Shown: positions 7,841 through 48,649, numbered from the stretch's first letter. The stretch: DNA of 60,489 nucleotides from an uncultured Fibrobacterota bacterium (GCA_964346405.1 CAYFVL010000002.1:1-60489), one strand, 5' to 3'. A program made the numbers and translations. The notes: generated by a model from the letters alone, not told the origin.

Positions 7841-7872
7841 GCAGTACTCGTATTACAGGAAAGTGTGATTTG

Positions 7873-15298: not shown

Positions 15299-15405
15299 TA
15301 ACCGAACAGCATTGAGTTTCGGCCGCCTCTGTCCATGCAAAGCATAGCGCAAGCCGACTACGGATAAGTTACACCTACTACGTGATTACGCGAAGGAAAC
15401 AAACA

Positions 15406-15582
15406 TTAACCCAAGTTTCGCAGTCGAGAGACGCCGTACCGCGCTGCACCTGAGCGGTGTCGAAGTGAGCGAAGCGTTGCATTGCGCTGCATTGCGGTGT
15501 CGAAGTGAGCGGTGTCGAAGTGAGCGGTGTCGAAATGTCGAGAGCGAGCATTATGCGTAAGATGTTGTGCGAGATTGACTTA
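15406..15582. mobile_element. MITE family 1 copy (177 bp) with internal 15-bp microrepeats
   Basis: The left end TTAACCCAAGTTTCGCAGTCGAGAGACGCCGTACCG is the reverse complement of the right ends at 37783 and 44900. GGTGTCGAAGTGAGC is repeated at 15456, 15496 and 15511, with a partial copy at 15526. The other end carries the variant terminus GTGCGAGATTGACTTA, also seen at 56079-56094. Confidence 0.75.
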
Positions 15583-15761
15583 GAAAAAGCGCAGGGGTAT
15601 CCGGGGAGATACCTTGAGTCCGGCCCGGCGGGACCGTGAGTTGGTTGCGAAACTTGAAACTAATTTCAGCGGTTGGGTAAAACAGTCTTAGCCGGTAAGA
15701 TTTTCGCGAATAGGGGCCTTGAAGGACGCTCTTGCGGATAATGCATCGTGAGCACATGCAT

Positions 15762-17183: not shown

Positions 17184-17427
17184 GCAGTACTTCGCCCGTT
17201 CTGGTGTTGATGGTACAATTTTAACACTTCGGATACACAGGATACTGTTAATATAGATGAATGGCGGAATTCTGCCGTATATTTCACGGGTATAGCATAC
17301 CTGTCGGCCGGCACGAACCGAACCTGCTGTCCGTGTCGTCCCGGAGTATCGTTTTCAGTTACATATGCCGCGTCCGACGCAGGGCTGAGCCGGAAACACG
17401 GGGCGGGCGTTGAAAAGGGGTGGAGTA

Positions 17428-20208: not shown

Positions 20209-20233
20209 GGGAACTCGGGGCCTCTGGGAAACG

Positions 20234-20276
20234 CAAAAAAACTGAAGCGAAACGCCACTTTCGGCATTTCGCTTCA
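20234..20276 (-). terminator. Rho-independent terminator downstream of P3
   Basis: Minus strand: a 14-bp stem (TGAAGCGAAATGCC / GGCGTTTCGCTTCA, one mismatch) with a 6-nt loop, followed by GTTTTTTTG. Confidence 0.7.
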
Positions 20277-20398
20277 ATCCGTCGCTGTCTTCGGCGCAAA
20301 GATATTTTCCTCAGCGCCTAAATTGATTTTGACGTACAGTAATAACAACCGTTTCCCTCTGTACGCACTCTGAATCAGAATCTCGTTCGGCTACCTAT

Positions 20399-23326
20399 TC
20401 AATCAGCGTCCGTTCTCAATCTGACCGGCAACCTCACCGTCTGAGTTTCGCCGGTACGGTAGGTGACTTTCACGAAATGGATCCCCGGGCTCATCCGTGA
20501 GGAGATGCTCGCGAGAGTTCCGGTTGCCCGGTCGTCATTTGACGGTTGCAAGGCGCGGATTCGTCGGCCCCTGAGATCAAGCAACTCAAGTGAGATTGCG
20601 CCCGCGGGCACAGTGATACGGTTCCCCTGTACCTTTAAGTCGTTGTCTCTTGTCGGCGGACCGGACCGTTTGTCGGTTTTGATCCCTACGGTACCATCCG
20701 GAGGCCACTCTACCGACGTCGGATTGGCGGGATCTACTTCGCCGTGCGGCCAACGGATCTCTCCTCGTGCCTGTGACTCCAGGTCAACATAGGCGCCGTG
20801 GAAGTCTGAATTGCAGTCAAGCCAGAGAGTAATGCGACGCATTTCTTCCGGGGTGAGTTTCACGTCATTGTGGCCGTTTTTCAACATAGGATACAGCTTC
20901 GACCCAAGAGCCCCGGTTTTCCCGGGAATGCTGTAGTGGACGTCTTCAAGCCCCAGGGTTGAATCACCCATACATTTGCTTCCATCATTATCCCAATAGA
21001 ACGAATATAGGCGAAGATTCATGTAGCTTTCAGTCCAGTACTCCCAGCTCTCCCTCCCGTTTTCGAGAGATTTACCACATGATGTACCGTTGTTGGAAAG
21101 CTGACCTTCAAGAACGGTTCCTGCTAATCGCGGAGCCTTGTCCGGATGTTTTTCATGACAGGGTTGACATTTTTCATCCAGTACCGGTTGCACGAGTCGG
21201 CTGAAGGAAAATGGACGACTTCCAGGAACTTCGGCCGTGATTTTTGAGGGTAGCCGTTGCTGAGCCGTAACTTGTCCTTTTGGTTCGGGAATTTTCCACT
21301 TATCTTCATGGCAGCCAAGACAACTGAGGTGCTCTCCAGGGTGAACGTAGGTTCCGGACCTCATTGATTGAACCGCGACCCCGTTTTCATCCAAAGCCTG
21401 AAAATAGATCTCTCTTCCGACAGGCGCCTGGAAAAATGCGCTGCCGTCCTCTTCAACCGGGACCGTCCCAAGGACCATCCGAGCACCGCCATGCTTTGCA
21501 TATCCTACCCAACTATTGTCCACGCTTTGGACTCTCTTGTTCAGAAGAACCTGAACGATTCGAAGCTGAGTTATTCTTGTTCCTTCCGGGAAGGGCAATT
21601 CGGATTCATACACGTCGGTAACGGAGATCGTAGCCGGCGTGTGATCTGCCAACCCACTTCGTTCGCCCTGAAAGGTTTGGGTCGACAACACTGGTGGCGT
21701 TGGACGGGATGCCTGCGGCATTGCATCCCAGATGAGAAATTCTCGGTTTTTCGGCCGTAACAAAAGTTCCTTATTGCCGAACTGATCAAGCAGATACAGT
21801 GAATACCTGTTGAGGCCATGCCGGTCTATCTTCCACCTTGACTTTTCCGGACGCTCTTCGTTGGGTATCCACTTGGAGCCGTGTGAGATCAAATAGTACT
21901 TCTCGCTCAGAGGCCAGGGGGTGGCGTAAGCGGCATCCGAGGCGAGGAACTTCAACTGTGAGCATTTCCGGTCATCCGGAATTCTTGTATCGATGATCAA
22001 CGGAGGCCCGGCGTATCCTTGATTGTGATTTCCCCCAATTGCGATGTATTTTTGAGAATTTGGAATTGAACGTATTTGTTTCTCGGCGGTCGGGCGATAA
22101 CGCCGACTCACATTTGCTGGAGCATAGTTGCCGTGCGGGGCACGGGGATCTCTTCCATCGGGGTAACACTTCCAGAGGTTGTGGAAATACCACAGGTTCC
22201 GATCCACATAATCCCACCGGGTGTAGACGATCATCCCGTCATTATCAACGCTTGGTTCCCATTCCTTTGTTTCATGGACGCTCAGCCAGATGCGGTCCGA
22301 CCCGTCGTCTTTCATGGAAAACAGGTTCTGTGAAGGACGAACATAACCCGTGCCGTCACAACGACCTTGAACGTCAAACGAATCAGAGGTAAACACAATG
22401 CGACCGTTTGGAAGTTGGCATGGATCCTGGTCGTCCCAGGGGCGGTCAAGCACCGACATCAGGTTTGAACCATCTACGTCCACTTTGTAAATACCAAACG
22501 AACTTCCCTGGCTGTGATATTTTGAGAAATTAAAGCTCCCACTTTCTTCCCCTCCTTCAACCAATCCGGCATAGCCAAAATAAACCTCAGTTCCTCCAAA
22601 GGTGACCTCGAGTCCACGAAACACACCGGGATTCAGAGGCTTTCCCGCAAGGCGACCGTTTTGTACAACGGAGTTCTCCAGAAGGTTTGACACCGAAGGG
22701 GCGTCACCGAAGGGATCATGAAGGACGTACACTCCTGCCGTGCTCAGGTCGAAATCTTCATCACCATAGATCCTTTTGAGCATGAACGATGAAGTCGCCT
22801 TGGTGACGTGAGAGTCGTGATTCCCCGGGTATTCTATGAAAAGGATCTTGTCGAAATCAAGCAATGGGTTCTTGAACGCTATTTCTCTCCGCAACTGGCA
22901 TACTTCAAGGTAGAGAAGTTTTCTGTCGGAAACGTCGGCAAGGCTAACAGATTCGGCTCTCGTCCGGATATTCGTAAGCCGATCGGCCTCCGATGAAAAC
23001 GTTGTTGATTCACCCCCCGAGGATTGGAGATCTTCGAGCAGCATGCTCACGCGACGAAGCGCGATGTCCAGCGGATCACGGTCTTCAGAGACCAGACCCG
23101 CGGCTGGGTTCAGAAGTGAAATGTCGCATTGGTATGGCTGGTAGTTCTTGTGCCCACCCTTAATGCGTAGGTCCAGTTCTCTCCATTGCGTATTCCATTC
23201 ATTCTCAACCATTTCACGACTGATATATTCACCGGCCAGAGCTGCAAAGGCAAAGACCAATATTAGCACGGCAAGATACCGACTGGATTTTATTGGAAGC
23301 GTATTAGCGATTTGGCGTTGTTTCAT
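20399..23326 (-). CDS. Secreted beta-propeller / di-heme c protein with T9SS C-terminal domain, paralog P3
   Basis: The ORF is open to 23377, but ATG 23326 follows a GGAGG RBS and starts MKQRQIANTLPIKSSRYLAVLILVFAFAALA. Motifs: SVHETKEWEPSVDNDGMIVYTRWDYVDRN, DGRDPRAPHGNY, HLSCLGCHEDK, KCQPCHEKHP. Tail: GIHFVKVTYRTGETQTVRLPVRL. Confidence 0.85.
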   Translation of the reverse strand: MKQRQIANTLPIKSSRYLAVLILVFAFAALAGEYISREMVENEWNTQWRELDLRIKGGHKNYQPYQCDISLLNPAAGLVSEDRDPLDIALRRVSMLLEDLQSSGGESTTFSSEADRLTNIRTRAESVSLADVSDRKLLYLEVCQLRREIAFKNPLLDFDKILFIEYPGNHDSHVTKATSSFMLKRIYGDEDFDLSTAGVYVLHDPFGDAPSVSNLLENSVVQNGRLAGKPLNPGVFRGLEVTFGGTEVYFGYAGLVEGGEESGSFNFSKYHSQGSSFGIYKVDVDGSNLMSVLDRPWDDQDPCQLPNGRIVFTSDSFDVQGRCDGTGYVRPSQNLFSMKDDGSDRIWLSVHETKEWEPSVDNDGMIVYTRWDYVDRNLWYFHNLWKCYPDGRDPRAPHGNYAPANVSRRYRPTAEKQIRSIPNSQKYIAIGGNHNQGYAGPPLIIDTRIPDDRKCSQLKFLASDAAYATPWPLSEKYYLISHGSKWIPNEERPEKSRWKIDRHGLNRYSLYLLDQFGNKELLLRPKNREFLIWDAMPQASRPTPPVLSTQTFQGERSGLADHTPATISVTDVYESELPFPEGTRITQLRIVQVLLNKRVQSVDNSWVGYAKHGGARMVLGTVPVEEDGSAFFQAPVGREIYFQALDENGVAVQSMRSGTYVHPGEHLSCLGCHEDKWKIPEPKGQVTAQQRLPSKITAEVPGSRPFSFSRLVQPVLDEKCQPCHEKHPDKAPRLAGTVLEGQLSNNGTSCGKSLENGRESWEYWTESYMNLRLYSFYWDNDGSKCMGDSTLGLEDVHYSIPGKTGALGSKLYPMLKNGHNDVKLTPEEMRRITLWLDCNSDFHGAYVDLESQARGEIRWPHGEVDPANPTSVEWPPDGTVGIKTDKRSGPPTRDNDLKVQGNRITVPAGAISLELLDLRGRRIRALQPSNDDRATGTLASISSRMSPGIHFVKVTYRTGETQTVRLPVRLRTDAD

Positions 23327-23479
23327 TAATCCCTCCGTTTTTTCAAACCTTGGTCCTCGACTGAACATTATTAACAAATGTACTCCCGTAACACGCTTAG
23401 TATATTACCGAACAAGGCAATGATATTTTCCAAAACAGTGCGAATTTCCCGCCCGGGGCGTCGAAAGCGTATACTATTT

Positions 23480-23621
23480 AGTGTCTGTCCGAAAAAAAAC
23501 CGTTCATCGAGTCCCGAATTAACTTCGGGAAGATGAACTCTTCGTTTCCAGCCGAAAACGAGCACCTTCCCGATTGAAATCGGGACTCGGCGTCCGTTTT
23601 CGAGGTTTTCGGACAGGCACT
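23480..23621. mobile_element. MITE family 2 copy (142 bp), inverted relative to the copy at 52832-52974
   Basis: TIRs are AGTGTCTGTCCGAAAA / TTTTCGGACAGGCACT, flanked by a 4-bp direct duplication ATTT (23476-23479 and 23622-23625). The whole element is a long imperfect palindrome. Confidence 0.85.
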
Positions 23622-23660: not shown

Positions 23661-24518
23661 GTGAACTTTTCAAAAGCTGTTGAGAAAAACTATCCTCATG
23701 GTCGCAACCGACTGTTTCCCGTCTATGGGAGGGAAGGGGAGGTCTTTCGAGACGCGGGGATAAATCATTGCGGTCTGGCTCATCTTACCGGTGAGTACCG
23801 TCGGGAGAGACGGAACCACAATCTGCATTTAATTGTTATCTCGATCTCGGGCAGCGGATACTTTCTCGATAAGGAAGGAGAAGTGTCGGTTTCTAAGGGA
23901 GAGACACTCTTCTTTCCGGCACGAGTACCTCATTTGTATGGAATGAAAGACGGTGAATGGGAATTTATCTTTTTCTTTTTGGAACCCGGTGTGCGGATTG
24001 TCAATTTGCCCAACCGTACCATGGTAAGTCGAGGCCTGGCCCCGGGGGAGTTCGATACGCTGATGAACCTGTTCTGGTCGGAATGCCTTAAGGAACGGAA
24101 AGACTCTCAGGCCCTGCTTGATCACCTCGCTCATATGATACTCATCTATTTGCAGAGGGAGATTGAATGTTTCACCCCCGACGGTGAAAAAATCCCGCTG
24201 CCGGTCGAGCAGAAAGAGCTGTGGAAGAAGGTTGAAGCCAACATCGAGAGAAGATGGACGGTGCACGAACTGGCCGAGCTGGCCTGTATGTCCGTGAGTT
24301 CTTTCAATCGGTTGTGTAAAAAGAATTACGGCATGCAGCCGATGAAGATCGTTGGCAAGCTACGGATCAACAGAGCTAAAGCGCTGCTGTCCATGTCGGA
24401 CTTGTCCATAAAACAAGTCGCGTATTTATCGGGCTACACAAACCAACTCTCCTTTTCGACTTCATTCCGAAAAGCCGCCGGTGTTACGCCAACTGAATTT
24501 AGAAAACGCTATGTGTAA
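23661..24518 (+). CDS. AraC-family transcriptional regulator
   Basis: 285-aa ORF. The C-terminal HTH is VHELAELACMSVSSFNRLCKKNYGMQPMKIVGKLRINRAKALL...QVAYLSGYTNQLSFSTSFRKAAGVTPTEFRK. Confidence 0.85.
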   Translation: MNFSKAVEKNYPHGRNRLFPVYGREGEVFRDAGINHCGLAHLTGEYRRERRNHNLHLIVISISGSGYFLDKEGEVSVSKGETLFFPARVPHLYGMKDGEWEFIFFFLEPGVRIVNLPNRTMVSRGLAPGEFDTLMNLFWSECLKERKDSQALLDHLAHMILIYLQREIECFTPDGEKIPLPVEQKELWKKVEANIERRWTVHELAELACMSVSSFNRLCKKNYGMQPMKIVGKLRINRAKALLSMSDLSIKQVAYLSGYTNQLSFSTSFRKAAGVTPTEFRKRYV

Positions 24519-24837
24519 TCGCTCAATACTCAATGTTTCCGGAAGAACCCTGGCCGAGCGATGGGAGTCAATCGCCCGGATAGGATTGTTGCCCACTACC
24601 TGATGGCACAGATTGCCGCCTGCGCATAAAGCCGTGAGTCGTCTGTCGAAGTCAGGCTAAAGAATCACTTTCCACCGTTGAGTCTCAGCCAACGCACTAC
24701 TATCCTGGCGCCAACCGCCGGAGGCAGAGCAAGGCAGCACAAAAAACCGCACGTACGGACGACCGCATCCAAGGTTCCGCCATTCGAATTTCCTCCACGA
24801 GACCAGCATCGCGAGGACGCCGAAATGGAAGCTATAT

Positions 24838-24957
24838 AGTGCTTGTCCGAAAAGTCCCTAAAACGGACGCTGAGCCTGTCGAAGCGCCCGTTTTAGGCTG
24901 AAATCGCCGGTTTGCTTCATCAATCCGAGCGAAAACAGGACTTTTCGGACGGACACT
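24838..24957. mobile_element. MITE family 2, 120-bp variant; left bracket of the radical SAM cassette
   Basis: 100% identical to 34283-34402 in the same orientation. TIRs are AGTGCTTGTCCGAAAAGTCC / GGACTTTTCGGACGGACACT. The 4-bp flanking duplication is ATAT (24834-24837 and 24958-24961). Confidence 0.9.
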
Positions 24958-25183
24958 ATATATATATTCTCATGTGTTGATTCGGGTTAAAGGACCAAAC
25001 GATACATGCCGGCTTCCACCCTGTCGATGTACTCTGTTTGCACCAACCTGTACACCAGATGTACACGCAGCACGAACAAGGTGGTTAGTTATTCCCTTTA
25101 AAATCAAAGTGTTATAAAGAGTGAGGCTGCCGGCACACCTTCTGTCTTGCTCTTCCCCGAACACCTGAGCCAAGGAGCCCGAC

Positions 25184-26518
25184 GTGCGAATACTGCTTAT
25201 AATGCCCGACGCCGGCATTCACCGGATGAGTCTGGGAGGGAAACACATCTCTTTCCGGGAAGCGCCCCTGACCCTCACCATGCTTGCCGCCCTTGCTCCT
25301 CCGGAGGTGGATGCCGAGTTTACGCTTGTCGATGAAAGCGTTACCGAACTCCCTGCGCACAACCATTGGGATCTGGTCGGCATCAGCATTCTTACCGGAA
25401 CTTCCACCCGCGGATATCTTCTGGCAGACCGATTCCGAGCGGCCGGTTGCACGGTGGTGCTTGGAGGCGTTCACGTGTCTCTGTGTCCCGAGGAAGCCAC
25501 CCGACATGCGGATGTGCTGGTTACCGGATTCGCGGAACGTACCTGGCCACGCTTGTTGCGGGATTTTGCGGGCGGCAAAGTACTGGCCCGCTACGACGAC
25601 CGGCAAGGTTGCATCGAAAAGCTGCCGACTCCGCGCAGGGATCTTCAAACCACGTCCGCCTATGCCATGCCCCAGACAGTCTTTGCCACCAGGGGATGTC
25701 GCGGGGGCTGTACGTTCTGTTCGGTAAACGCAGCGAAATTCGGCTGGTCCGTTCGTCCGGTCGGCGAGATAATCGACGAAATTCGACAGTTGCCGGGGCG
25801 ACGGTTCGCATTCAACGACGTCAGTTTGCTCGAAGACCGGGATTACGCTCTGGAGCTTTTCACCGCTCTGCAGGCGTGTAACAAAGAGTGGGGCGGGCTT
25901 TGTACCAGTAAGATTGGCGCCGACGAAGAAATGCTGCAATTGATGGGGCGCGCGGGTTGTCGCTACCTTCTTATTGGGTTCGAATCGGTATCCGACGACA
26001 CACTCTGCGACATACGTAAACGTTATAACAACCGGGAAAATTATGTAATACTCTGCGATCGTCTTCACCGGACTGGAATCGCCGTTCAGGGATGTTTTAT
26101 TTTCGGGTTCGATCACGACGATAACACTGTTTTCGACAATACGGTTGAGGCTGTCGAACAGCTCAAAATCGACATCCCCCGGTATGCGTTGTACACCCCG
26201 TACCCACGAACGCCTGGATTCGAGAAACTCCGTGCACAAGGCAGGCTGCTTCACACTCGATGGGAACACTATGATACGCAACACGTAGTTATCCAACCGG
26301 CGAAAATGTCTCCGTCGGATCTTGACCGAGGGTTCATTCGCGCCTACAAACAAACGTTCGGGCTGAAAGCGATAACTCGTCGCACTCTCCGTTTTTCCAA
26401 AACCGCTCCGGTTGTGTTCGTCGGCAATCTGGCATATCGCATGTACATCTCACGATTGGAGAATGAGAAGGCTCGCATCCTCCCGTCAACCCCCGTACCG
26501 TATGCGTTGTCCGCATAA
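25184..26518 (+). CDS. B12-binding-domain radical SAM protein (class B-like, DUF4070-type C-terminus), rSAM1
   Basis: GTG start 7 nt after AAGGAG. The N-terminal Rossmann-like cobalamin-domain pattern is DLVGISILTGTSTRGYLLADRFRAAGCTVVLGGVH. The CX3CX2C cluster is TRGCRGGCTFCSV. Confidence 0.85.
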   Translation: MRILLIMPDAGIHRMSLGGKHISFREAPLTLTMLAALAPPEVDAEFTLVDESVTELPAHNHWDLVGISILTGTSTRGYLLADRFRAAGCTVVLGGVHVSLCPEEATRHADVLVTGFAERTWPRLLRDFAGGKVLARYDDRQGCIEKLPTPRRDLQTTSAYAMPQTVFATRGCRGGCTFCSVNAAKFGWSVRPVGEIIDEIRQLPGRRFAFNDVSLLEDRDYALELFTALQACNKEWGGLCTSKIGADEEMLQLMGRAGCRYLLIGFESVSDDTLCDIRKRYNNRENYVILCDRLHRTGIAVQGCFIFGFDHDDNTVFDNTVEAVEQLKIDIPRYALYTPYPRTPGFEKLRAQGRLLHTRWEHYDTQHVVIQPAKMSPSDLDRGFIRAYKQTFGLKAITRRTLRFSKTAPVVFVGNLAYRMYISRLENEKARILPSTPVPYALSA

Positions 26519-26545
26519 GACCGCCGGCCGGTCAGGCTATGCACT

Positions 26546-27853
26546 ATGAAGATAGCATTTATTAACCCGAATTTCGCCCCGACTCGCTCTCGGGATGCCA
26601 TGCAACCGTTGGTGTTCGCGCTGCTCAAGGGCCTGACCCCCACCGCATATCATACCGTGTTGTACGATGAGCGGATAGAACCTGTTCCGGATCGCCCCAA
26701 TTTTGATCTGGCCGCCCTGTCGGTTCAGACCTTCACTGCACGAAGGGCATACGAGATCGCCGACCAACTTCGAGCAAAGCGCATTCCGGTTGTCCTGGGA
26801 GGAATACATCCAACATTGCTGCCGCACGAGGCCGCGGCACACGCGGACAGTGTCGTCGTCGGTGACGCCGAGGATACCTGGCCTCGTCTTCTGAAGGATC
26901 TTAATCATAACCGGCTGAGAAGCATCTATCGTTCAAGGTATACTCATGATCTTGGGGGACTGCAACCGGACCGTTCCATTTACAGTAGTAAGCGATACGG
27001 GCCGCTTGTACCCGTGTTCTTCAGGCGAGGATGTCGGTTTGCCTGCGATTTCTGTGCAGTCGGAGCGGTGTACGGCTCAACGGTACGACACCGCCCGGTG
27101 CGCGACGTTCTTCGAGAAATCCAACAACTGCCGTCGGGTATTCTCTTTTTTGTTGACGACAACCTTTTCAGCGACAAAGGATCGTCCCTGGATCTGTGCC
27201 GGGCTCTTCAGCCTCTCAGACGTCGCTGGATATGCCAAACCGGAATTGATTTGGCGAAAGACCGGGAGATGCTTGTAACGATGAGACGTAGCGGATGTCG
27301 TGCGGTCTTCGTAGGGTTTGAATCCATGAACCAGCGAACACTGAGGGCTATGAGCAAGCGGCAGAACGTCGGGGTGGACTATACCGAAGCGGTCGCCCGC
27401 TTTCGGGAAGCCGGAATAATGATCTGTGGTTCTTTTCTCTTCGGTCGAGGAGAGGAAACCGTTCGCGATATTGAATGGGCCGAAGCATTTGCACGAAAAA
27501 ACAAATTGTGTCTTTCCCATTTCAACCCTCTGTTTCCAACTCCGGGTACTCCGGTTTACGAACGAATTCACTCCGACGGTCGCCTGCTTTACGACCGCTG
27601 GTGGCTCCACGACGATTACCGAATAAATGAGCCGATTTTCGAACCGAAAGGTATGTCGGCAAAAGAACTTTGCGACGCCACGATTCTGGCCAGAAAGCGA
27701 TTCAACAAACTTGGTAGTATTCTACATCGACTCATCGATCCTAAAGCAAACAGTCGAAGTGCGATGAATGTCTTTCTGTATCTTATCGCCAATCTTGTGT
27801 CTCGCACCGAAATCCGTCGCAAAACCCACCGGCACTTAGGGAGCATCTCATGA
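26546..27853 (+). CDS. B12-binding-domain radical SAM protein, rSAM2
   Basis: Motifs: DLAALSVQTFTARRAYEIADQLRAKRIPVVLGGIH, GDAEDTWPRLLKDL, RRGCRFACDFCAV. The C-terminal block is YDRWWLHDDYRINEPIFEPKGMSAKEL. Confidence 0.85.
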   Translation: MKIAFINPNFAPTRSRDAMQPLVFALLKGLTPTAYHTVLYDERIEPVPDRPNFDLAALSVQTFTARRAYEIADQLRAKRIPVVLGGIHPTLLPHEAAAHADSVVVGDAEDTWPRLLKDLNHNRLRSIYRSRYTHDLGGLQPDRSIYSSKRYGPLVPVFFRRGCRFACDFCAVGAVYGSTVRHRPVRDVLREIQQLPSGILFFVDDNLFSDKGSSLDLCRALQPLRRRWICQTGIDLAKDREMLVTMRRSGCRAVFVGFESMNQRTLRAMSKRQNVGVDYTEAVARFREAGIMICGSFLFGRGEETVRDIEWAEAFARKNKLCLSHFNPLFPTPGTPVYERIHSDGRLLYDRWWLHDDYRINEPIFEPKGMSAKELCDATILARKRFNKLGSILHRLIDPKANSRSAMNVFLYLIANLVSRTEIRRKTHRHLGSIS

Positions 27854-29196
27854 GAGTAACGCTGATTAAACCGAACATGGGAACTCTGGCCCACGGCCCC
27901 TATAGAGACACCGGAAGAATGGAACCTCTAAATATCGGCGTGCTTGCCGCTATGGTTCCACCGGACGTAGAGGTTTCCTTTTACGACGATCGCTGCGAAC
28001 CGGTTGACTATCATGCTCCCACCGACCTGGTGGCCTTGACGGTCGAAACTTTCACGGCGAAGCGATCATACGAGATTGCCCGTGAATATCGGTCCCGCGG
28101 TATTCCGGTGGTTATGGGCGGTATGCACCCGACACTGATACCCGACGAAGTCCGTCGACATTGCGATAGTGTATACATCGGCGACGCCGAATGGGGATGG
28201 CTCACGGTGATAGAAGACGCGCGCAACCTTACACTGAAACCGCAATACAAGGCGAAACGCCGCAAAGTCGCCTCTCCACAAAGCACCGGCCCCGCACGGC
28301 GAGACCTTTTTGCGGGAAAGGGGTATCTCCCTGTTTCACTCCTGCAATTTTCCCGAGGATGTCCGCACTCATGTTCATTCTGCGCAACTGCGCGCTATTT
28401 TTCCTCGAGTCATTTCTGCCGCTCAACGGAATCGGTACTCGAAGAGGTATCACGGTGCGGTAAATTGCTTTTTTTCGTGGACGACAACTTCACTGCAGAC
28501 CGCCCGAGAGCACGCGCATTGTTGCAGAGGCTCAAACAATACAAAGTACACTGGGTGACCCAGGTGAGTATCGATGTAGCGGACGATTCGGCATTGCTCA
28601 AACTCATGCGGGAGAGCGGCTGTCTGGGGTTTGTCTGTGGCTTTGAGTCCATTGTCTACAGCAATCTGAAATTGATGAACAAACATACGAATACCCACAA
28701 CTTTTCGCACTACGAGGAGCAGATCACCGCGCTAAAAGACCATGGGTTCCAGATATGGGCGGCATTTACGATTGGCCATGATTTTGACACCGTGAGCAGT
28801 ATCGAGGATACTGTAGCGTGGGCGATCAAAAACAAATTCGCCTTTGCCGCCTTCAACATACTGCTCCCCTACCCCGGCACTCCCCTCTACAGGAGAATCG
28901 CCGAAGAAAACCGTCACCTGTACGATGGTGCGTGGTGGCTTCATGATGACTATCGGTTCAATCATGCAGCAATCAAGCCGAAACACATGACCGCGGACCG
29001 CCTCACGGAGACCTGTCAATCGGCTCGACAGAAGTTCAACAGTCCGTTATCCATCGCAAAACGCTTGCTTGACACACGGACCAATATGCGGAGCATTTTT
29101 CGTGTGGGGCTCTTTTTGAGATACAGTTTGTTGTTCAGAACCGAAGTTTACACAAAGCATGGCATGCATCTTGGGAACGGAAAGGATACACAATGA
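27850..29196 (+). CDS. B12-binding-domain radical SAM protein, rSAM3
   Basis: ATGA overlap with the rSAM2 stop. Motifs: DLVALTVETFTAKRSYEIAREYRSRGIPVVMGGMH, SRGCPHSCSFCAT, YDGAWWLHDDYRFNHAAIKPKHMTADRL. Confidence 0.85.
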   Translation: MRVTLIKPNMGTLAHGPYRDTGRMEPLNIGVLAAMVPPDVEVSFYDDRCEPVDYHAPTDLVALTVETFTAKRSYEIAREYRSRGIPVVMGGMHPTLIPDEVRRHCDSVYIGDAEWGWLTVIEDARNLTLKPQYKAKRRKVASPQSTGPARRDLFAGKGYLPVSLLQFSRGCPHSCSFCATARYFSSSHFCRSTESVLEEVSRCGKLLFFVDDNFTADRPRARALLQRLKQYKVHWVTQVSIDVADDSALLKLMRESGCLGFVCGFESIVYSNLKLMNKHTNTHNFSHYEEQITALKDHGFQIWAAFTIGHDFDTVSSIEDTVAWAIKNKFAFAAFNILLPYPGTPLYRRIAEENRHLYDGAWWLHDDYRFNHAAIKPKHMTADRLTETCQSARQKFNSPLSIAKRLLDTRTNMRSIFRVGLFLRYSLLFRTEVYTKHGMHLGNGKDTQ

Positions 29197-30587
29197 AAGT
29201 CACCTTCATTATGCCCTGTGTGGGGAGGAAACCTGACAGCAATGAGTACGTGAAAGGGTGGCTCATGGAGCCCCTGGCGGTTGCAATGCTTTCGGCGCTA
29301 ACGCCGGAACACATAACTCGTGAATTTTTCGACGATCGACTGGAGCCGATTGACTACGACACAGGCACCGATCTGGTTGCCGTTAACGTGGAGACATACA
29401 CTGCACGAAGGGCCTACCAGATAGCAGGCGAATACCGCCGTCGAGGGATCCCGGTAGTAATGGGCGGATTTCATGCGACGTTGTGTCCCCATGAAGTCGA
29501 GCAGTATGCCGAGAGCGTTGCCGTTGGATCCGCTGAAGATACCTGGCCGCGGATTCTGTCCGACTACGAAAACGGGAGGCTTGCACGACGGTATACCGGT
29601 GAAGACAACTCTTTTGCCGGCGTGTTGCCCGACCGCGCAATCTATGCCGACAAAAGATACACCGGAGTCACGCTGATTGAAACCGGGCGCGGATGTCGGT
29701 TTTCTTGCGAGTTCTGTTCCATTAGTCCATTTTTCAAGAAACAGTACTTTCCTCGCTCCGTCGACGAGGTAGTCACGGAAATCGAACAACGCAGATTCCG
29801 TTTTGTTTTCTTCATCGACGACAACATAATGGTAGATCGCGCCAGGACGGTCACGCTGCTGAAGGCTCTGATTCCTCTCAAAGTACAGTGGATTGGCCAG
29901 GTCAGCCTGAATCTGGCACGAGACCCGGAAATGATGTCACTAATGAAACAGAGTGGATGCGCCGGTGTACTGATAGGGTTTGAATCGCTCAATCGGGACA
30001 ATCTGACCGCAATGGGTAAACAAATCAACTATTCAATGGGAGACTACGACTCGGCGGCCGCGACCCTACGAAAAGCGGGACTGGGGGTATACGCAACATT
30101 CGTGTTCGGATATGACGGCGACACGGTTGACGCTTTCAGACGAACACTTGCATTTGCCAAAAGAAGCAAGTTTTTCTTCGCCGCATTCAACCATCTGGTC
30201 CCCTTTCCCGGGACTCCATTGTATCAACGTCTGCTTTTGAACGGCTCGCTCAGGGATGAGAAGTGGTGGCTGTCGGGGGAGCGCACCTTTGGGGAAGTGG
30301 TATTCGAGCCCGGGCAATTATCTCCCGACGCTCTCGCTGAAACATGCCTTACCTATCGGAGGAAATTTTATAGTCCTCTCTCGGTTCTCTATCGTTCCTC
30401 CAATTTTCAATCAAATTGTTCCTCATTGGCAAAAACACTCATTTACTTTAGTCAAAGCGTTATCGGCCGAAAAGATGTGCTTCGCCGCCAGGGACTTCCT
30501 TTTGGACTCCCGGGGGTTCACGTTGAGAAGCGAGTCGCGAAGCCGAAATCAGTCGATGCCGAAGGACAGGAGCGTATCTGCTCATGA
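29193..30587 (+). CDS. B12-binding-domain radical SAM protein, rSAM4
   Basis: ATGA overlap with the rSAM3 stop. Motifs: DLVAVNVETYTARRAYQIAGEYRRRGIPVVMGGFH, GRGCRFSCEFCSI. Confidence 0.85.
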   Translation: MKVTFIMPCVGRKPDSNEYVKGWLMEPLAVAMLSALTPEHITREFFDDRLEPIDYDTGTDLVAVNVETYTARRAYQIAGEYRRRGIPVVMGGFHATLCPHEVEQYAESVAVGSAEDTWPRILSDYENGRLARRYTGEDNSFAGVLPDRAIYADKRYTGVTLIETGRGCRFSCEFCSISPFFKKQYFPRSVDEVVTEIEQRRFRFVFFIDDNIMVDRARTVTLLKALIPLKVQWIGQVSLNLARDPEMMSLMKQSGCAGVLIGFESLNRDNLTAMGKQINYSMGDYDSAAATLRKAGLGVYATFVFGYDGDTVDAFRRTLAFAKRSKFFFAAFNHLVPFPGTPLYQRLLLNGSLRDEKWWLSGERTFGEVVFEPGQLSPDALAETCLTYRRKFYSPLSVLYRSSNFQSNCSSLAKTLIYFSQSVIGRKDVLRRQGLPFGLPGVHVEKRVAKPKSVDAEGQERICS

Positions 30588-31675
30588 GGCCAATCCTGGT
30601 AATCGATAATTCCAGCGACGCCGCTTTGAATCAACTTCTTCGCGACACGCCGATGCCGGGTGTCGTTGAGCTTGCCTACTGCAGGCATCCCTCGGTTGTC
30701 GAATCGCTTGCTCTCGATGGAGACCGCCACGATCTCTTCGTGTATAAGGATGATAAGCGTATTATCGGCATGGGAGTTCGGAGCATTCGGAGTATGTATT
30801 TGGATGGAATACCTCGAGAAATTGCCTATCTTTCAGGTTTGCGGATTCGGAAGGAGTATCGCAATGGATTACTCCTTGCCCGGGGATACCGTTTTCTGCG
30901 CAAACTCGCGACCGACAATCCAAGCTCTCTGCACCTCACCACTATAGTCGAAGACAATCATCATGCCCGCGGAATTCTTACCGGCGGCAGAGCCGGTATG
31001 CCCACATACAACGACCTCGGACGAATAGTCACCTCTGCTATTCCACTGAGAAAACGATCGATTTTTTCGCCGGTTTCGCCGGTGAGTGTTCACCGGGGTA
31101 GAAAAGATGAACTCCTGGAATACTGCCGGTTTTTGCGTACTGAAGGGGCCAAACGACAGTTTTTCCCTTGTATCGATCAATCGATGTTCGGTACGGCTCG
31201 ACTACGGGGATTATCGGCAGACGATTTCGTGATTGCACGGAGGGACGGCTACATAATGGGTCTTGCCGCTGTCTGGGATCAGCGCAGCAGCAAGCAGCAC
31301 CTCATCACGGGATACTCGCCGCTTTTATCCGGCCTCCGTCCCATCCTCAACATCCCGGCGTCGGCCGCCGGGTTTCGTCCTCTGCCGTCGCCCGGGAATC
31401 ACCTGCCGACAGCTCACCTGGCATTCTGTTGCGTTCGCGACCATAGTCACCGGACTCTTCGACGGCTTATCTCTTCGGCGTGCAATCTGGCATTCTCCAA
31501 AGGATGTGCATTTCTTGTCTTTTCGCAACATGAGAAAGATCCGCTTCTCGGCATGCCGAGAATGATACCGAAAATGAATTACTACAGCCGTTTGTATTCA
31601 GTCTCGTGGAATTCTGTCCCGGAGACAACATTTAACGCTTCCAGAATTCCACACATCGAATCATCAATGCTTTAA
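30584..31675 (+). CDS. Conserved hypothetical protein, probably a two-lobed GNAT-like acyltransferase
   Basis: 363-aa ORF with an ATGA overlap with the rSAM4 stop. The segment LSGLRIRKEYRNGLLLARGYRFLRKL resembles GNAT motif A (R/Q-x-x-G-x-G/A). There is no signal peptide. The fold assignment is tentative. Confidence 0.45.
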   Translation: MRPILVIDNSSDAALNQLLRDTPMPGVVELAYCRHPSVVESLALDGDRHDLFVYKDDKRIIGMGVRSIRSMYLDGIPREIAYLSGLRIRKEYRNGLLLARGYRFLRKLATDNPSSLHLTTIVEDNHHARGILTGGRAGMPTYNDLGRIVTSAIPLRKRSIFSPVSPVSVHRGRKDELLEYCRFLRTEGAKRQFFPCIDQSMFGTARLRGLSADDFVIARRDGYIMGLAAVWDQRSSKQHLITGYSPLLSGLRPILNIPASAAGFRPLPSPGNHLPTAHLAFCCVRDHSHRTLRRLISSACNLAFSKGCAFLVFSQHEKDPLLGMPRMIPKMNYYSRLYSVSWNSVPETTFNASRIPHIESSML

Positions 31676-31687
31676 AGGAGTAAAATT

Positions 31688-32488
31688 ATGCCGCTAACCG
31701 CCACAATTACCGGTACGAAACAGATCAGCATGGACACACGTCGTGAGATGTTTGATCTTCAGCGAACCCATTTCGACAACGTCCGCGAAGGCGCCTTTAT
31801 GCGTGATCTTTTCGAGAAAGACTACGTAATACTCCTGCATGACGAATCCGGCGGTCTGCACGGTTTCAGCACCATACAGCTCATATACCATGCTATGGGA
31901 GACCGCCAAACAATTTTCCTGTTCAGCGGAGACACGATTGTTGACCCCAGGTTCTGGCAAAGCGGCGGGATCGCCGGGGCATTCGGCCGATTCGTTCTCC
32001 GTCTACTCGAACAGGAGAACAACGCTGACCTCTACTGGTTTCTCATATCGAAAGGCTACCGGACGTACCGGTTCCTTCCGACATTCTTCCATGAGTTTTA
32101 CCCGGTATGGAACCGGGAGACTCCGGCTTTTTACCGAGGACTGCTCGATTTCGCAGGGCGATACAAATTCAACGAAAACTACTGCTCATCAGATGGGTTA
32201 GTGAAGTTCGACGACGCCAGGGACCGACTGTGTGCACCGCTGGCGACCGTGCCCGAAAGATGCCTCCAGGATCCTCATGTTAATTTTTTCCTTAAAAGTA
32301 ACCCCGGGTATGCACGCGGGGATGAACTCACCTGCATAGCCCCGCTTACCGGAGAAAATTTCAGCGCCCCGGCTCGTCGCGTAATCCGCACTGCCCGTGT
32401 AATATGGGAAACTCCTTTACAGGGTCGACGTGGTGTCGGATGTTCCGACAACCGTAATGATCTGAATGCGACACCGGTCACGACCTGA
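31688..32488 (+). CDS. Conserved hypothetical protein (possible acyl-CoA N-acyltransferase-like fold)
   Basis: 266-aa ORF with ATG 8 nt after AAAGGAG. It has no signal peptide and no motif I can assign securely. Confidence 0.4.
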   Translation: MPLTATITGTKQISMDTRREMFDLQRTHFDNVREGAFMRDLFEKDYVILLHDESGGLHGFSTIQLIYHAMGDRQTIFLFSGDTIVDPRFWQSGGIAGAFGRFVLRLLEQENNADLYWFLISKGYRTYRFLPTFFHEFYPVWNRETPAFYRGLLDFAGRYKFNENYCSSDGLVKFDDARDRLCAPLATVPERCLQDPHVNFFLKSNPGYARGDELTCIAPLTGENFSAPARRVIRTARVIWETPLQGRRGVGCSDNRNDLNATPVTT

Positions 32489-32498
32489 GGGTAGCAGA

Positions 32499-34280
32499 AT
32501 GAAGTCTATGCAGCTTTTCACCGTCAATCTGTTCTGGTTCATTTCCTGCATTCCGGGTTTGCTTTCGTATGTTGTAGCTTCCTTTTTTCCACATTTCATT
32601 CAAAATAGGCTTTCCAAAAGTACATACGACGAAAACCGTTCATCGTGCTATCTCAACCATTTTGGAGTGCCGCCGCCGATTACAGACTATTCCGAGCTGG
32701 AACCGTATATAGAACGTATCATGAATGGCGATGAAAACGTCCTGACCGCCGAAAAAGTCAGACTACTGGAGCCTACCTCGGGCTCAAGTGGAGGATCGAA
32801 ATATGTCCCCTACACGGCCGAACTTCAGAAACGGTTTCAGGCCGCGATTTCTCCCTGGATCGGGGCTCTTTTCATTCAATATCCCCGGCTCTTCTTTCGC
32901 AGCCAGTATTGGTCCATTTCTCCTAATACCGCTAACGAACGTGTGGACAGTACGGTCCCGATCGGATTTGATTCCGACGCCGAATACCTTACCGCCGCAC
33001 AGCGTGCCGTGGCTGAAACGCTCATGGCGGTTCCCGGCGAAGTTCGCCATCTGCATGATGCCGAAACTTTCGAGTTTGTCACCCTGACATTTCTGCTGAA
33101 AGCGCGCCGTCTTGGGTTACTCTCAATCTGGCACCCGAGTTTTCTCACCATTATGCTGGACAAGCTCGATGATCTCTACCCGTCACTGCTGGAAACCTTA
33201 CGGACAGGAAGCTTCCCCGGAGAGCTGCACATTTCCGACGATATACGGTCAAAGCTCGAAAGACGCCTTGGGAGGAACGACCGTCGGGCGAAACATCTGT
33301 CGATGATCGACACATCCCTTTCAGGCTATGGATCTCGCATCTGGCCCGGTCTCACCGTGGTTAGCTGCTGGACAGGCGGAACCTCTGCTCATGCAGTTCG
33401 TCGCATTCGCACGATTTTCCCCCGTGCCGTCATCCAATCCAAAGGACTGATCGCCACCGAGGGTATCGTTTCATTCCCCATTTTCGGTCGACAATCCGCT
33501 GCCGTGCTATCTCATGTAATGGAATTTGTCGATCAATCCGATGATACGATCATACCGCTTTGGAAAGTCAAACGGGGGAAGAGGTACTCGGTGATTCTTA
33601 CCAACGGCGGTGGACTGTACCGATACCGCCTTCGAGATATTGTGGAGATCGAAAAAGGGTTCGGCCGAACCCCGGGAATTCGTTTCATTGCCAAGGAGTC
33701 GTCCTTTTGCGACCTCGTCGGGGAGAAGCTTTCGGAAGAATTCGTATCCGGTATACTCAGTGAAGCCGTACCGCACACCGGCGTCAATCCGAATTTTATC
33801 GTTATTGCCCCGCTGCGTTACCCTATTTTGAAGCAGCCTGGACCGCATGACCAGTCATTCCCCTTCAAAAACGGCTTGGATCATCAGACTTCAGAGAATT
33901 CCGAAAGCTCCCGTAATGGAAACCCAGAGAACTCCCCGACCCCGGGGTCATCCGATTCCGAATCGGCCGGATTCGGTTACGTACTTTTTGTAGAAGGGTC
34001 GTCGGAAATTCAAATGCCGCACATTCGAACGCTTGCGACGTATATCGAAAAAGCGTTTTGTGGGCGCTCGTACCACTATCGTCATGCACGAAACCACAAC
34101 CAGCTCCAAGGCTTATGCCCGGTACATCTCCCGCCGGGCGCGCAGGAGTCCTACATTGCAGCCCTGGTCGATCTCGGGATGAAACGGGGAGATATTAAAC
34201 TTACCGCCTTGTGTTCGCGATACGATACGGCCGAGGTCCTGTTTTCATTATCTCGTGACGCCCGGCCCGGCTTGCAGTAG
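32499..34280 (+). CDS. GH3-family (auxin-responsive-promoter-type) adenylating acyl-acid amido synthetase homolog
   Basis: The GH3 signatures are LEPTSGSSGGSKYVPYT (P-loop-like TSG..G..K.IP) and GGLYRYRLRDIVEI (YRxGD-type). ATG 32499 lies 10 nt after the upstream stop, with GAGG as RBS, although the ORF is open from 32466. The N-terminus is hydrophobic. Confidence 0.8.
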   Translation: MKSMQLFTVNLFWFISCIPGLLSYVVASFFPHFIQNRLSKSTYDENRSSCYLNHFGVPPPITDYSELEPYIERIMNGDENVLTAEKVRLLEPTSGSSGGSKYVPYTAELQKRFQAAISPWIGALFIQYPRLFFRSQYWSISPNTANERVDSTVPIGFDSDAEYLTAAQRAVAETLMAVPGEVRHLHDAETFEFVTLTFLLKARRLGLLSIWHPSFLTIMLDKLDDLYPSLLETLRTGSFPGELHISDDIRSKLERRLGRNDRRAKHLSMIDTSLSGYGSRIWPGLTVVSCWTGGTSAHAVRRIRTIFPRAVIQSKGLIATEGIVSFPIFGRQSAAVLSHVMEFVDQSDDTIIPLWKVKRGKRYSVILTNGGGLYRYRLRDIVEIEKGFGRTPGIRFIAKESSFCDLVGEKLSEEFVSGILSEAVPHTGVNPNFIVIAPLRYPILKQPGPHDQSFPFKNGLDHQTSENSESSRNGNPENSPTPGSSDSESAGFGYVLFVEGSSEIQMPHIRTLATYIEKAFCGRSYHYRHARNHNQLQGLCPVHLPPGAQESYIAALVDLGMKRGDIKLTALCSRYDTAEVLFSLSRDARPGLQ

Positions 34281-34282
34281 TT

Positions 34283-34402
34283 AGTGCTTGTCCGAAAAGT
34301 CCCTAAAACGGACGCTGAGCCTGTCGAAGCGCCCGTTTTAGGCTGAAATCGCCGGTTTGCTTCATCAATCCGAGCGAAAACAGGACTTTTCGGACGGACA
34401 CT
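34283..34402. mobile_element. MITE family 2, 120-bp variant; right bracket of the radical SAM cassette
   Basis: Identical to 24838-24957. The 4-bp flanking duplication is AGTT (34279-34282 and 34403-34406). The left duplicate overlaps the GH3 stop codon TAG (34278-34280). Confidence 0.9.
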
Positions 34403-34665
34403 AGTTACATTCCCAGGAAAACGACGGAACGTACGAAGGATCCATTCGTATATCCTACCCGCCACACATTACGCCCCCGACTTGCGTCCCAAAGACTGCC
34501 GTTTTTCACGATTTTCTTGATGTTTGGTCTCTCAATCAGGAGCGGTCTCAACACTTGGTCGTGTCGGATGTGGGTCAATTCCGCTCGTAGAAGACGCTAT
34601 TTGAGCCCGTGAGCCATAGCTCCCGCATAGCCACTTCCCTTCTGTGGAAACCTCATGCACACTGT

Positions 34666-34890
34666 CTATCGAAGAAATTCGCGTCGTAGGTCAGTTCTTC
34701 GTCTGGAGCCATGGCTTTGGGGTCTGGTGGGCCCATGGGATGCACTCAGCCTGTCGGAGTCTTGTGAAGGCTCTCGCCGGAGTTCGCGGTGGCGCAGTAT
34801 TCGCTCGACCACATCGGGCTGTTGATGGTGGTCGATGAATCCCACAATTTTCATTGTTCCGCCACAGTCGGGGCACTTCAGTGGGCCCAC
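34666..34890 (-). pseudogene. Remnant of the 3' end of an IS91-family-like transposase gene
   Basis: LKCPDCGGTMKIVGFIDHHQQPDVVERILRH resembles the C-terminal C-P-x-C-G-G-x-M-x-I-I-A-x-I-x-D-x-x-V-I-x-K-I-L-x-H block of IS91-type transposases. No intact catalytic domain lies upstream, and the downstream part looks frame-shifted. Confidence 0.5.
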
Positions 34891-37335: not shown

Positions 37336-37619
37336 GCACCCCTCGACCCGTGCGTAGTGTGAAAAGCGGGACGGCGATTCTGCGTCACGCGTCCTCTGGC
37401 GTCCTATGTCTCAGCCTCGCTTCAGAGTTCGGCCGCGTCACTCGTATTCAGGTACTTGACGCCCGCGGCCGGGTCGTCCGGGCTATGTCGCCGGCGACGG
37501 CGGAAACCGACGGGGGCCATGTAAGGCTCCCCACGGCGGGACTTGGGGCGGGGATGTACCTCGTGCATGTGGTCGGCGTAAAGAGTAAAAGCACGTTTGG
37601 TCCCGCATGGGTCGACTAG
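37269..37619 (+). pseudogene. Detached T9SS C-terminal domain belonging to the BNR gene (a -1 frame relative to it)
   Basis: This frame is open from 37269 and reads FEEVPAAPPTVDTTIYVDPLSV...RIQVLDARGRVVRAM...GAGMYLVHVVGVKSKSTFGPAWVD, a typical sorting-domain end. Confidence 0.65.
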
Positions 37620-37783
37620 CCCAAGTTTCGCAATAAACTCACGGCATTATGCGTAAGCTGTTGCACGATCTTACGCATGATGCTCTACCCCTCGATGTTT
37701 CGACTACGCTCAACACAACGCTTCGCTCGGGGCATCGCCTCGGCTCCGCTCGGTACGGCGTCTCTCGACTGCGAAACTTGGGG
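37617..37783. mobile_element. MITE family 1 copy (167 bp)
   Basis: It starts TAGCCCAAGTTTCGCA and ends TGCGAAACTTGGG. Its first three bases are the TAG stop of the preceding ORF. Confidence 0.8.
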
Positions 37784-39391: not shown

Positions 39392-40124
39392 GGTGTATTT
39401 TCTGTGTTGTATGACACATTCGGCCCCTGAAATCGCTCACTTTGTTGGGGAGGGGACGGAGCTGCGGCAGTGCATTTTGCCCCCGCCATGTTGTGCCATG
39501 GGGACGGAGCTGCAGTCATGCATTTCCGATTTCTCGACTTGCGGCGTCCTACTAAAGGCCAGAAATCATCTCCCACCTCAGTATTTTCCGTGCTGGAAGG
39601 AATTATACTGCTGCGTCGTGGTTTGACATAGCGATAGCAAGATTCCTCTGCCCTTGCACCTGCATCCTTCTGAAGATCCGGCAATGATCGTGACATGTGG
39701 CCAAACTCGAACGAGTGAAACAAATGGTGTGCGAGTATACACCATAATTCCGGAGTGCAACCATAAATCCGCAATCAATTGATAGGAAATTGCTTTTGCT
39801 GTGATCCACAAGTTTTCCCCTCACGGTGGTCCCAGCGGGAGGAGACGCTCGGACTCGGATGGAGACGGAACCCCATGGGTCCATCAACACATGCACTTCT
39901 GATCAAGTTTTCTGGATTATGAGTCAGGTATTCGGTGGTGACTCTCGGGGTCCGAGGCCTTAAATTATTACCAGGGGCCGTCACGAAATAAGCACTAGCT
40001 TTCACTGATAATTTCGCGATTCCCGCGGTGGGTGCCGCCCGTCTGGGGCTTCGAATGCATATTCTCTCACCGCCGAATGTCTGAACAGTTTCAAAAACCC
40101 AAACTCCAGCCGGAGGCATGCGAA

Positions 40125-44680: not shown

Positions 44681-44716
44681 AATCGCCGTATCTCCGCGGA
44701 GGTACTTACTTGTGCC

Positions 44717-46773: not shown

Positions 46774-46856
46774 GCCGGTGCGCGATTCATTGATTCCCGC
46801 TCCCCGGCTTGTTCATTCGCGTATGGACCCACACCGCTTGTACCGCAAAGCCGGGC

Positions 46857-48605: not shown

Positions 48606-48649
48606 CTGTTTTTTCCTTTAGTTAGCTCTTGGTGGTTGCTTACTTAATT

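Follow-up and report, generated by a model that had tools for sequence, protein, structure and literature searches.

The stretch of DNA analysed here, referred to as the window, comprises 60,489 nucleotides (nt) from an uncultured Fibrobacterota bacterium (GCA_964346405.1 CAYFVL010000002.1:1-60489). Within it lies a seven-gene cassette that encodes four radical S-adenosylmethionine (SAM) enzymes of the B12-binding type (rS1 to rS4), two predicted GNAT-fold proteins (p5 and p6), and a GH3-family adenylate-forming amide synthetase. The cassette is one instance of a widespread biosynthetic cassette family that is experimentally uncharacterised. Its genes are seven consecutive open reading frames (ORFs) on the + strand that span 25184-34280 (Table 1) and form an intact, translationally coupled operon. 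Start and stop codons overlap as ATGA at 27850 (rS2/rS3), 29193 (rS3/rS4), and 30584 (rS4/p5), as can be read straight from the sequence, and the remaining junctions measure 27 nt (rS1/rS2), 12 nt (p5/p6), and 10 nt (p6/GH3, with the GH3 start at 32499). An initial annotation, produced by a model from the sequence alone, had described seven same-strand genes at these positions, three ATGA overlaps with gaps of 10-27 nt, and a single operon encoding four paralogous radical SAMs of the class B type, two GNAT-like proteins, and an adenylating GH3 amide synthetase, all of which stands. It had also stated that the cassette proteins lack signal peptides, in contrast to almost every neighbouring gene. 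A signal-peptide-like N-terminus is indeed absent from all seven; many neighbouring proteins have one, but the regulators do not. Scans for promoters and terminators gave counts no higher than the shuffled expectation.

Table 1. Features of the cassette and its immediate surroundings in the window. L001 is a near-identical metagenome-assembled genome; MITE, miniature inverted-repeat transposable element.
Feature	Position	Strand	Basis or remark
AraC-family regulator	23661..24518	+	Pfam HTH_18, HTH_AraC, AraC_binding; also upstream of the cassette in L001
Upstream MITE	24837..24958 (122 bp)	+	Identical to the downstream copy; TA-rich site; empty in L001
rS1, radical SAM with N-terminal B12-binding-type domain, near-universal rS1 clade	25184..26518	+	Pfam Radical_SAM E 1e-14; CX3CX2C
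rS2, B12-binding radical SAM, accessory clade	26546..27853	+	Pfam B12-binding above cut-off and Radical_SAM
rS3, B12-binding-type radical SAM, accessory clade	27850..29196	+	Pfam; ATGA overlap with rS2
rS4, B12-binding-type radical SAM, near-universal rS4 clade	29193..30587	+	Pfam; ATGA overlap
p5, 363 aa, predicted tandem GNAT, N-myristoyltransferase-like fold	30584..31675	+	AlphaFold2 and Foldseek
p6, 266 aa, predicted single GNAT fold with C-terminal extension	31688..32488	+	AlphaFold2 and Foldseek
GH3-family adenylate-forming amide synthetase	32499..34280 (longest ORF from 32466)	+	Pfam, motifs I/III
Downstream MITE	34282..34403 (122 bp)	+	Begins 2 nt past the GH3 stop codon; the L001 copy has 2 mismatches
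74-aa ORF with CxxC zinc-finger motif, possible transposase remnant, outside the cassette	34666..34890	-	Weak zf-IS66 match, E 0.005

The GH3 enzyme matches the N-terminal Pfam domain PF03321 with 121 bits (E 8e-35) and the central domain GH3_M, PF23571, with 50 bits (E 3e-13), both above the cut-off, while the C-terminal domain PF23572 reaches 22.3 bits, just under its cut-off of 23.6. Its nucleotide-binding motifs I (TSGSSGGSKYVP) and III (GLYRYRLRD) align with SSGTSQGRPKFIP and GLYRYRLGD of JAR1, which bears out the GH3 signatures named in the initial annotation. The longest ORF, of 604 amino acids (aa) from 32466, has no exact database match because the database gene starts 11 codons later, at 32499, and encodes 593 aa. 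The N-terminus of that protein (32499-32580) holds a conserved amphipathic or hydrophobic motif, ANLxWFLSCLPGW, which is common to this GH3 subfamily; the segment was considered as a membrane anchor, a role that is not claimed for this conserved family motif.

Plant GH3 enzymes (JAR1, GH3.5/3.6, GH3.12) act on jasmonate, auxin, and benzoates, and all solved relatives of the window enzyme are plant enzymes acting on small acids. They share with it the N-terminal and central Pfam domains, motifs I and III, and the order of adenylation followed by amide formation. However, the overall similarity is low (E 2e-14, from local matches), and the window enzyme belongs to a bacterial operon with an obligate GNAT-fold partner. 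The sole bacterial GH3 with a known function as of 2025 is OlsH of Singulisphaera acidiphila (UniProt L0DAW6), which makes N-acyl-ornithine from a free fatty acid with the use of ATP, and other bacterial GH3s were predicted by its authors to make other N-acyl amino acids (PMC12493201). The OlsH/OlsI(/OlsG) pathway resembles the cassette in that a bacterial GH3 with conserved nucleotide-binding motifs forms an amide, in an ATP-dependent manner, as the first step of a dedicated operon. It differs in the partners, which in the window are two GNAT-fold proteins (p6 and p5) and B12-type radical SAMs. It also differs in motif III, which by its published description reads GMWSHLIGD in OlsH; the GLYRYRLRD of the window enzyme is nearer to the plant motif. 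A 2026 review of aminolipids names neither a radical SAM nor a GNAT as a partner of GH3. Literature searches returned no paper describing the GH3-GNAT-radical SAM combination, and only the OlsH paper and its review were relevant, in agreement with the earlier statement that no characterised pathway was known to have this gene content.

The proteins encoded directly upstream of GH3 belong to no Pfam or NCBIfam family of their own. The Pfam GNAT match of p5 stays sub-threshold at 17.7 bits against a cut-off of 20.7, p6 has no such match, and a profile search against PDB sequences returned nothing for p6 and only E 0.0016 for p5. AlphaFold2 models were therefore compared at the level of fold, being built from homologue alignments and searched with Foldseek. 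For p5 (pLDDT 90.8), N-myristoyltransferases and bacterial tandem GNATs rank first (E 4e-12, TM-score 0.55-0.64), among them 5kf1 and MAB_4324; these likewise carry two GNAT lobes per chain, but p5 is only ~10% identical to them and has no Pfam match above threshold. For p6 (pLDDT 91.4), GNAT acetyltransferases match over the N-terminal two-thirds (E 3e-6), and an extra C-terminal part follows. On these models, p5 is predicted to be a tandem-GNAT fold and p6 a single GNAT fold. The description of p5 as a two-lobed GNAT-like protein thus agrees with structure prediction and fold search, whereas p6, listed earlier as an unknown protein, does lack a sequence family but can be assigned a putative GNAT fold.

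Lobe 1 of p5 carries a plausible counterpart (R..RNG...ARG) of the loop that binds the acyl-CoA pyrophosphate (Q/R-x-x-G-x-G/A). GNAT-fold enzymes that build N-acyl amino acid lipids include OlsB, GlsB, and NAS/FeeM; they have no detectable sequence relationship to p5 or p6, and the amide in the present case would presumably be formed by GH3. Three representatives (P0386, P0405, and P0427; 726-788 aa) are fusions in which p6 is N-terminal and a full GH3 lies behind it, which argues that p6 works jointly with GH3. In a relative whose p6 is 78% identical to that of the window (L087), the position of p5 (4496-5484) is occupied by a gene call of 163 aa, which reflects either a disrupted p5 or an assembly error.

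The four radical SAM enzymes share an invariant CX3CX2C cluster (C172/C176/C179 in rS1 numbering), a VVLGG.H block, and a G.AE.(T)W block, and rS2-rS4 are 26-32% identical to rS1. Pfam Radical_SAM (PF04055) is significant in all four (E 5e-13 to 1e-14). The B12-binding domain PF02310 scores 40.8 bits in rS2 against a cut-off of 32.1 and 26-31 bits in rS1 (26.7 bits), rS3, and rS4; the N-terminal regions align with the B12 radical SAM family TIGR04013. Both rS2 and rS3 carry the WWLHDDYR motif, which is degenerate in rS4 and missing from rS1, and DUF4070 was not detected in the C-termini (Pfam, E <= 0.01). The motif description given earlier for all four paralogues therefore holds for the cysteine cluster, the Radical_SAM domain, and the AE.(T)W block; however, the B12-binding domain passes its cut-off only in rS2, WWLHDDYR is intact only in rS2 and rS3, and the DUF4070-like C-terminus could not be recovered.

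Their apparent architecture of a putative N-terminal B12-binding-type domain followed by a CX3CX2C core resembles that of class B radical SAMs (HpnP/HpnR, HpnJ, BchE, PhpK, CysS, AprD4, and the ladderane-cluster radical SAM), which are likewise used as tailoring enzymes in biosynthetic clusters. All four window proteins nevertheless fall far below every curated family cut-off. NCBIfam equivalogs (HpnJ, BchE, HpnR, PhpK, ladderane, and others) score 15-91 bits against cut-offs of 250-775; the top matches, at 78-91 bits against cut-offs of 250-600, are HpnJ, PhpK, BchE, TIGR04013, and the ladderane-cluster radical SAM, and none of the characterised B12 radical SAM equivalogs tested, including MCR Gln methylase, AprD4, BzaD, and TsrM-type enzymes, reaches its curated cut-off. 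The initial annotation had set its proposal against membership of a characterised family, and these scores indicate no such membership. Among solved structures, AprD4, an unnamed radical SAM protein, and CysS come nearest, with weak E-values; AprD4 is the best solved relative of rS4 (E 1e-12), and CysS is also among the solved relatives of this paralogue.

In a neighbour-joining tree, the window paralogues fall into four separate orthologous clades, which suggests that they are old and presumably not redundant. The clades occur in unequal numbers of loci (rS1 43, rS4 40, rS2 8, rS3 8). The pair rS1 and rS4 is the commonest set, in 26 of 47 loci, and all four occur together, as in the window, in at least four loci, including Peptoclostridium litorale. 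Judged from their sequences, the radical SAMs form four clades of their own that are tied to the p5-p6-GH3 core and lie outside the characterised families. In a relative with 82-85% DNA identity (L006), ~1 kb of rS2 is lost (L006 1830-1994 corresponds to window 26655-27677) and the other six genes are kept; thus, rS2 appears dispensable.

The cassette is present in L001, in a 6-Mb metagenome-assembled chromosome (L002), and in Lentisphaerae GWF2_57_35 (L003-L005), and relatives of its core reach much further. Database homologues of p6 and those of GH3 lie on contigs whose lengths match. A p6 profile search of 1.84 billion cluster representatives (50% identity) gave 2222 matches with E <= 1e-3, of which 824 had E <= 1e-30. 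A motif scan with one genome per GTDB species found p6 relatives in at least 583 species and more than 12 phyla. Carriers among the matches listed belong to Lentisphaerota, Kiritimatiellia, Verrucomicrobiota, many Planctomycetota, Acidobacteriota, Cyanobacteria, Sericytochromatia, Bacillota (Peptoclostridium litorale DSM 5388, Acetivibrio), Bacteroidota, Desulfomicrobium, Spirochaetota, Sumerlaeota, KSB1, Calditrichota, and Gammaproteobacteria. In nearly all of the 80 loci that were retrieved, p6 and GH3 are direct neighbours; p5 adjoins them in ~60 and B12-type radical SAMs occur in ~54. Hence, p6 and GH3 constitute an invariant core, p5 is the usual companion, and two to four radical SAMs are added in anaerobe-type lineages. 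The initial annotation had treated a lack of co-occurrence in other genomes as counting against it; the combination is in fact conserved. Clostridia carry a five-gene module, p6-GH3-rS1-rS4-p5, between housekeeping genes, which implies that the module is self-contained and must draw on common metabolites. Among cultured organisms, Peptoclostridium litorale DSM 5388 (NZ_FSRH01000001.1, ~142.7-151.7 kb) has all seven genes, and Calothrix sp. NIES-4105 has the aerobic version.

The tailoring genes beside the core were tallied in the 61 loci of at least 12 kb. B12-type radical SAMs occur without oxygen-dependent enzymes in 30 of these (Lentisphaerota, Kiritimatiellia, Verrucomicrobia, Bacillota, Bacteroidota, Desulfomicrobium, Spirochaetota, Sumerlaeia, and Phycisphaerae), oxygen-dependent enzymes alone in 15, both in 14 (mostly Pirellulales and Gemmataceae), and neither in two. 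Two arrangements recur among the loci with oxygen-dependent enzymes alone. Acidobacteriaceae have the layout Rieske-p6-GH3-p5-FA_desaturase-P450-FA_hydroxylase, without radical SAMs. Cyanobacteria and some Gammaproteobacteria have the layout p6-Rieske-AurF-like-AurF-like-Rieske-ferredoxin-Rieske-FA_hydroxylase-hexapeptide-GH3; in three cyanobacterial loci (L047, L050, and L075; ~10000-19600), a ten-gene operon from p6 to GH3 is conserved without p5 and without a radical SAM. Other recurrent neighbours encode SnoaL-like proteins, PAP2_3, DUF4345 membrane proteins, hexapeptide transferases with membrane segments, non-B12 and SPASM radical SAMs, Amidohydro_2, and UbiE-type methyltransferases.

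The two MITEs that bracket the cassette are identical at 122 of 122 positions, lie in direct orientation, and have ~21-nt terminal inverted repeats; the downstream copy folds into a very stable hairpin (-58 kcal/mol, z -7.2). The identical, directly oriented copies of the initial annotation are thus real, and their identity extends over the full 122 bp (24837-24958 and 34282-34403). From these flanks, and from the functional discontinuity with the surroundings, horizontal acquisition had been deduced, a deduction that does not hold. A recent arrival of the cassette as a composite mobile element bounded by the two MITEs would suit the position of the copies, 226 nt before the first start codon and 2 nt past the last stop, as well as the possible transposase remnant and the rearrangement breakpoint downstream, the different downstream genes of the relative with 82-85% identity, and the patchy distribution of the cluster across phyla. 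It is, however, extremely unlikely in view of L001, which is ~98-99% identical to the window at the DNA level from the HZS_alpha gene and the AraC gene through GH3. In that genome, the cassette occupies the same site behind the same AraC gene, the downstream MITE is present, and the position of the upstream MITE is a clean empty site; the copies are therefore separate insertions, of which the upstream one is younger than the residence of the cassette. The upstream MITE at 24837-24958 is a recent insertion. In addition, five related MITEs with the same termini lie within the 60-kb window, and a joint passage of MITE, cassette, and MITE is seen neither in L001, with its empty upstream site, nor in L006, which has no flank in common with the window. 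Composition, which the initial annotation had proposed to compare, does not set the cassette apart from its flanks: its GC content is 0.529 against 0.525 in the rest of the window, it lies at a tetranucleotide distance of 0.119, where other 9-kb windows range over 0.09-0.24, and its GC content at third codon positions and codon usage lie within the range of the flanks. The MITEs did not deliver the cassette, and the mobile-element inference was wrong.

Over longer times the cluster clearly moves, given its patchy phyletic distribution, the different flanks in L006, and the integrase and group II intron reverse transcriptase genes that neighbour it in P. litorale. What L006 has in common with the window is confined to 25127-34283, and an acetyl-CoA synthase cluster follows in L006; the sequences of the window and L001 part ~85 nt beyond the downstream MITE (from ~34490), which marks the downstream side as a rearrangement hot spot. 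In P. litorale (L062), a phage-type integrase and a DegT/DnrJ/EryC1 aminotransferase lie upstream (6820-9675), and a small GNAT gene and the group II intron reverse transcriptase lie downstream (19143-20677). The 74-aa ORF at 34666-34890, earlier called an IS91-like transposase remnant, could not be confirmed as such; its only match, to zf-IS66, is below the cut-off, and tblastn gave no match in plasmids.

Taking domains, folds, and gene contexts together, we propose that the seven-gene cassette makes a tailored amide-linked lipid of the lipoamino-acid or aminolipid type, with the flanking MITEs as independent insertions of an element common in this genome and not as its carriers, and we give this proposal about an even chance of being correct. 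GH3 would adenylate a carboxylic acid, most likely a free fatty acid by analogy with OlsH, and then form an amide with an amino acid or amine, with p6 acting in complex with it. One or more further acyl groups would be added by p5 (or p6) from acyl-CoA or acyl-ACP, after which the radical SAMs would alter unactivated carbons of the product by C-methylation or other radical chemistry. A lipid substrate is favoured because FA_desaturase, FA_hydroxylase, P450, PAP2_3, and small membrane proteins recur as neighbours, because the best fold matches of p5 are fatty-acyl (myristoyl) transferases, and because OlsH ligates free fatty acids to ornithine (PMC12493201). The initial annotation had likewise suggested an amide-linked small molecule or lipid, a reasonable idea for which OlsH, not cited there, supplies a published precedent. 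Several points weigh against this proposal. N-myristoyltransferases may head the p5 matches simply because no other tandem-GNAT fold has so many PDB entries, the segment of p6 that corresponds to the CoA-binding loop is atypical and poorly conserved, and the B12-binding score is under the Pfam cut-off in three of the four radical SAMs. For all four, sequence cannot tell methylation from other radical chemistry. Furthermore, Pfam searches of the seven genes found no homologue of the alpha/beta-hydrolase O-acyltransferase OlsI or of the N-methyltransferase OlsG, which places the cassette outside the OlsHI pathway. Aromatic or small-molecule chemistry would also suit several recurrent neighbours, namely the SnoaL-like, Rieske, AurF-like di-iron, Amidohydro_2, and UbiE-type methyltransferase genes.

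These same recurrent neighbours lend themselves to a product that is not a lipid, in which GH3 would activate an aromatic or small acid and join it to an amino acid, the GNATs would acetylate, and the radical SAMs would methylate or rearrange, to give a specialised metabolite or cofactor-like molecule. The restriction of the solved GH3 relatives to plant enzymes on small acids points the same way, as does CysS, the class B radical SAM among the solved relatives of rS4, which acts on aromatic natural-product precursors. We consider such a product a serious alternative, though rather less than probable, since the sole characterised bacterial GH3 uses fatty acids (PMC12493201), genes for FA desaturase, FA hydroxylase, PAP2, and membrane proteins turn up repeatedly next to the core, and the minimal clostridial module has no genes for the synthesis of a special acid. 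A third conceivable target is a ribosomal peptide or protein, which the radical SAMs would C-methylate, p5 would N-acylate at its terminus, and GH3 would ligate through a carboxylate. B12 radical SAM C-methyltransferases do exist for peptides made by the ribosome and modified post-translationally (RiPPs), weak matches to ApyD and rSAM_ocin_1 were obtained, p5 resembles protein N-myristoyltransferase, and some loci contain SPASM radical SAMs. Nevertheless, the radical SAM scores lie far under the RiPP family cut-offs, the cluster has no conserved RiPP recognition element, protease, or transporter, and no conserved ORF of 25-110 aa outside the large genes was found in the 80 loci, where the search gave only shadow ORFs inside large genes. 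This reading was rejected as very unlikely.

Within the proposed lipid pathway, the repeated methylation suggested in the initial annotation is one candidate reaction; the replacement of radical SAMs by oxygenases in aerobes would also suit other radical chemistry. BchE and AcsF are a known pair of oxygen-independent and oxygen-dependent counterpart enzymes. By this analogy, p6-GH3, usually with p5, might define an unrecognised family of amide-forming lipid pathways in oxygen-independent and oxygen-dependent versions, in which anaerobes would tailor with radical SAMs and aerobes with Rieske, di-iron, P450, desaturase, and hydroxylase enzymes. At least some of the radical SAMs would then perform anaerobic C-H functionalisation (hydroxylation, desaturation, or cyclisation, in a BchE/AcsF-like relationship) and not simple methylation, and the products might include unassigned membrane lipids of anoxic settings. 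The idea is speculative and, in our judgement, unlikely as a whole. The contrast of radical SAMs in anaerobes with oxygenases in aerobes offers a natural experiment on oxygen-independent tailoring chemistry.

Several features lie outside the widely conserved cluster. The AraC-family gene in front of the cassette is a candidate regulator, and the intergenic region between it and rS1 shows a 31-bp indel relative to L001 at ~24712. Directly downstream of the cassette in two loci (L006 8332-11624 and L088 6555-9739) are genes for a RACo-type corrinoid activase and for CdhD, the acetyl-CoA synthase corrinoid protein; RACo was considered as a corrinoid-reactivation partner of the cassette and set aside, as it sits beside CdhD and probably belongs to a Wood-Ljungdahl cluster. 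Elsewhere in the window, three more MITE-like elements (23474-23609, 48643-48716, and 52845-52980) share the termini TGTCCGAAAA / TTTTCGGACA with the cassette copies and form a second subfamily. A dispersed repeat family that differs from the cassette MITE occurs between genes in both orientations (55-75 nt, 64-93% identity; 2117-2196, 10948-11004, 15405-15461, 37616-37782, 44716-44898, and 46733-46787), and the start of the window (53-2262) holds a tandem array of a ~258-nt unit in about nine copies, which are 61-97% identical and contain 47-nt inverted repeats. Three paralogous proteins of ~970-990 aa with the hydrazine-synthase-alpha middle domain PF18582 and signal-like N-termini are encoded at 12362-15298, 20399-23377, and 40032-42938, among sulfatase, BNR/sortilin, VWA, and AraC/GntR regulator genes.

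The cluster family is built from known enzyme classes together with two unmodelled GNAT-fold families, p5 and p6, of which p6 alone numbers over 2000 cluster representatives and occurs in at least 583 species and more than 12 phyla. It represents a second GH3-centred pathway beside that of OlsH, more elaborate and more widespread, with a partner that is sometimes fused to GH3, and it adds four clades of B12-type radical SAMs to the unassigned part of the superfamily. The cultured carriers P. litorale DSM 5388 and Calothrix sp. NIES-4105 make the cluster testable. If its product is a membrane lipid, the cluster could explain some of the unassigned branched or modified lipids of anoxic environments.

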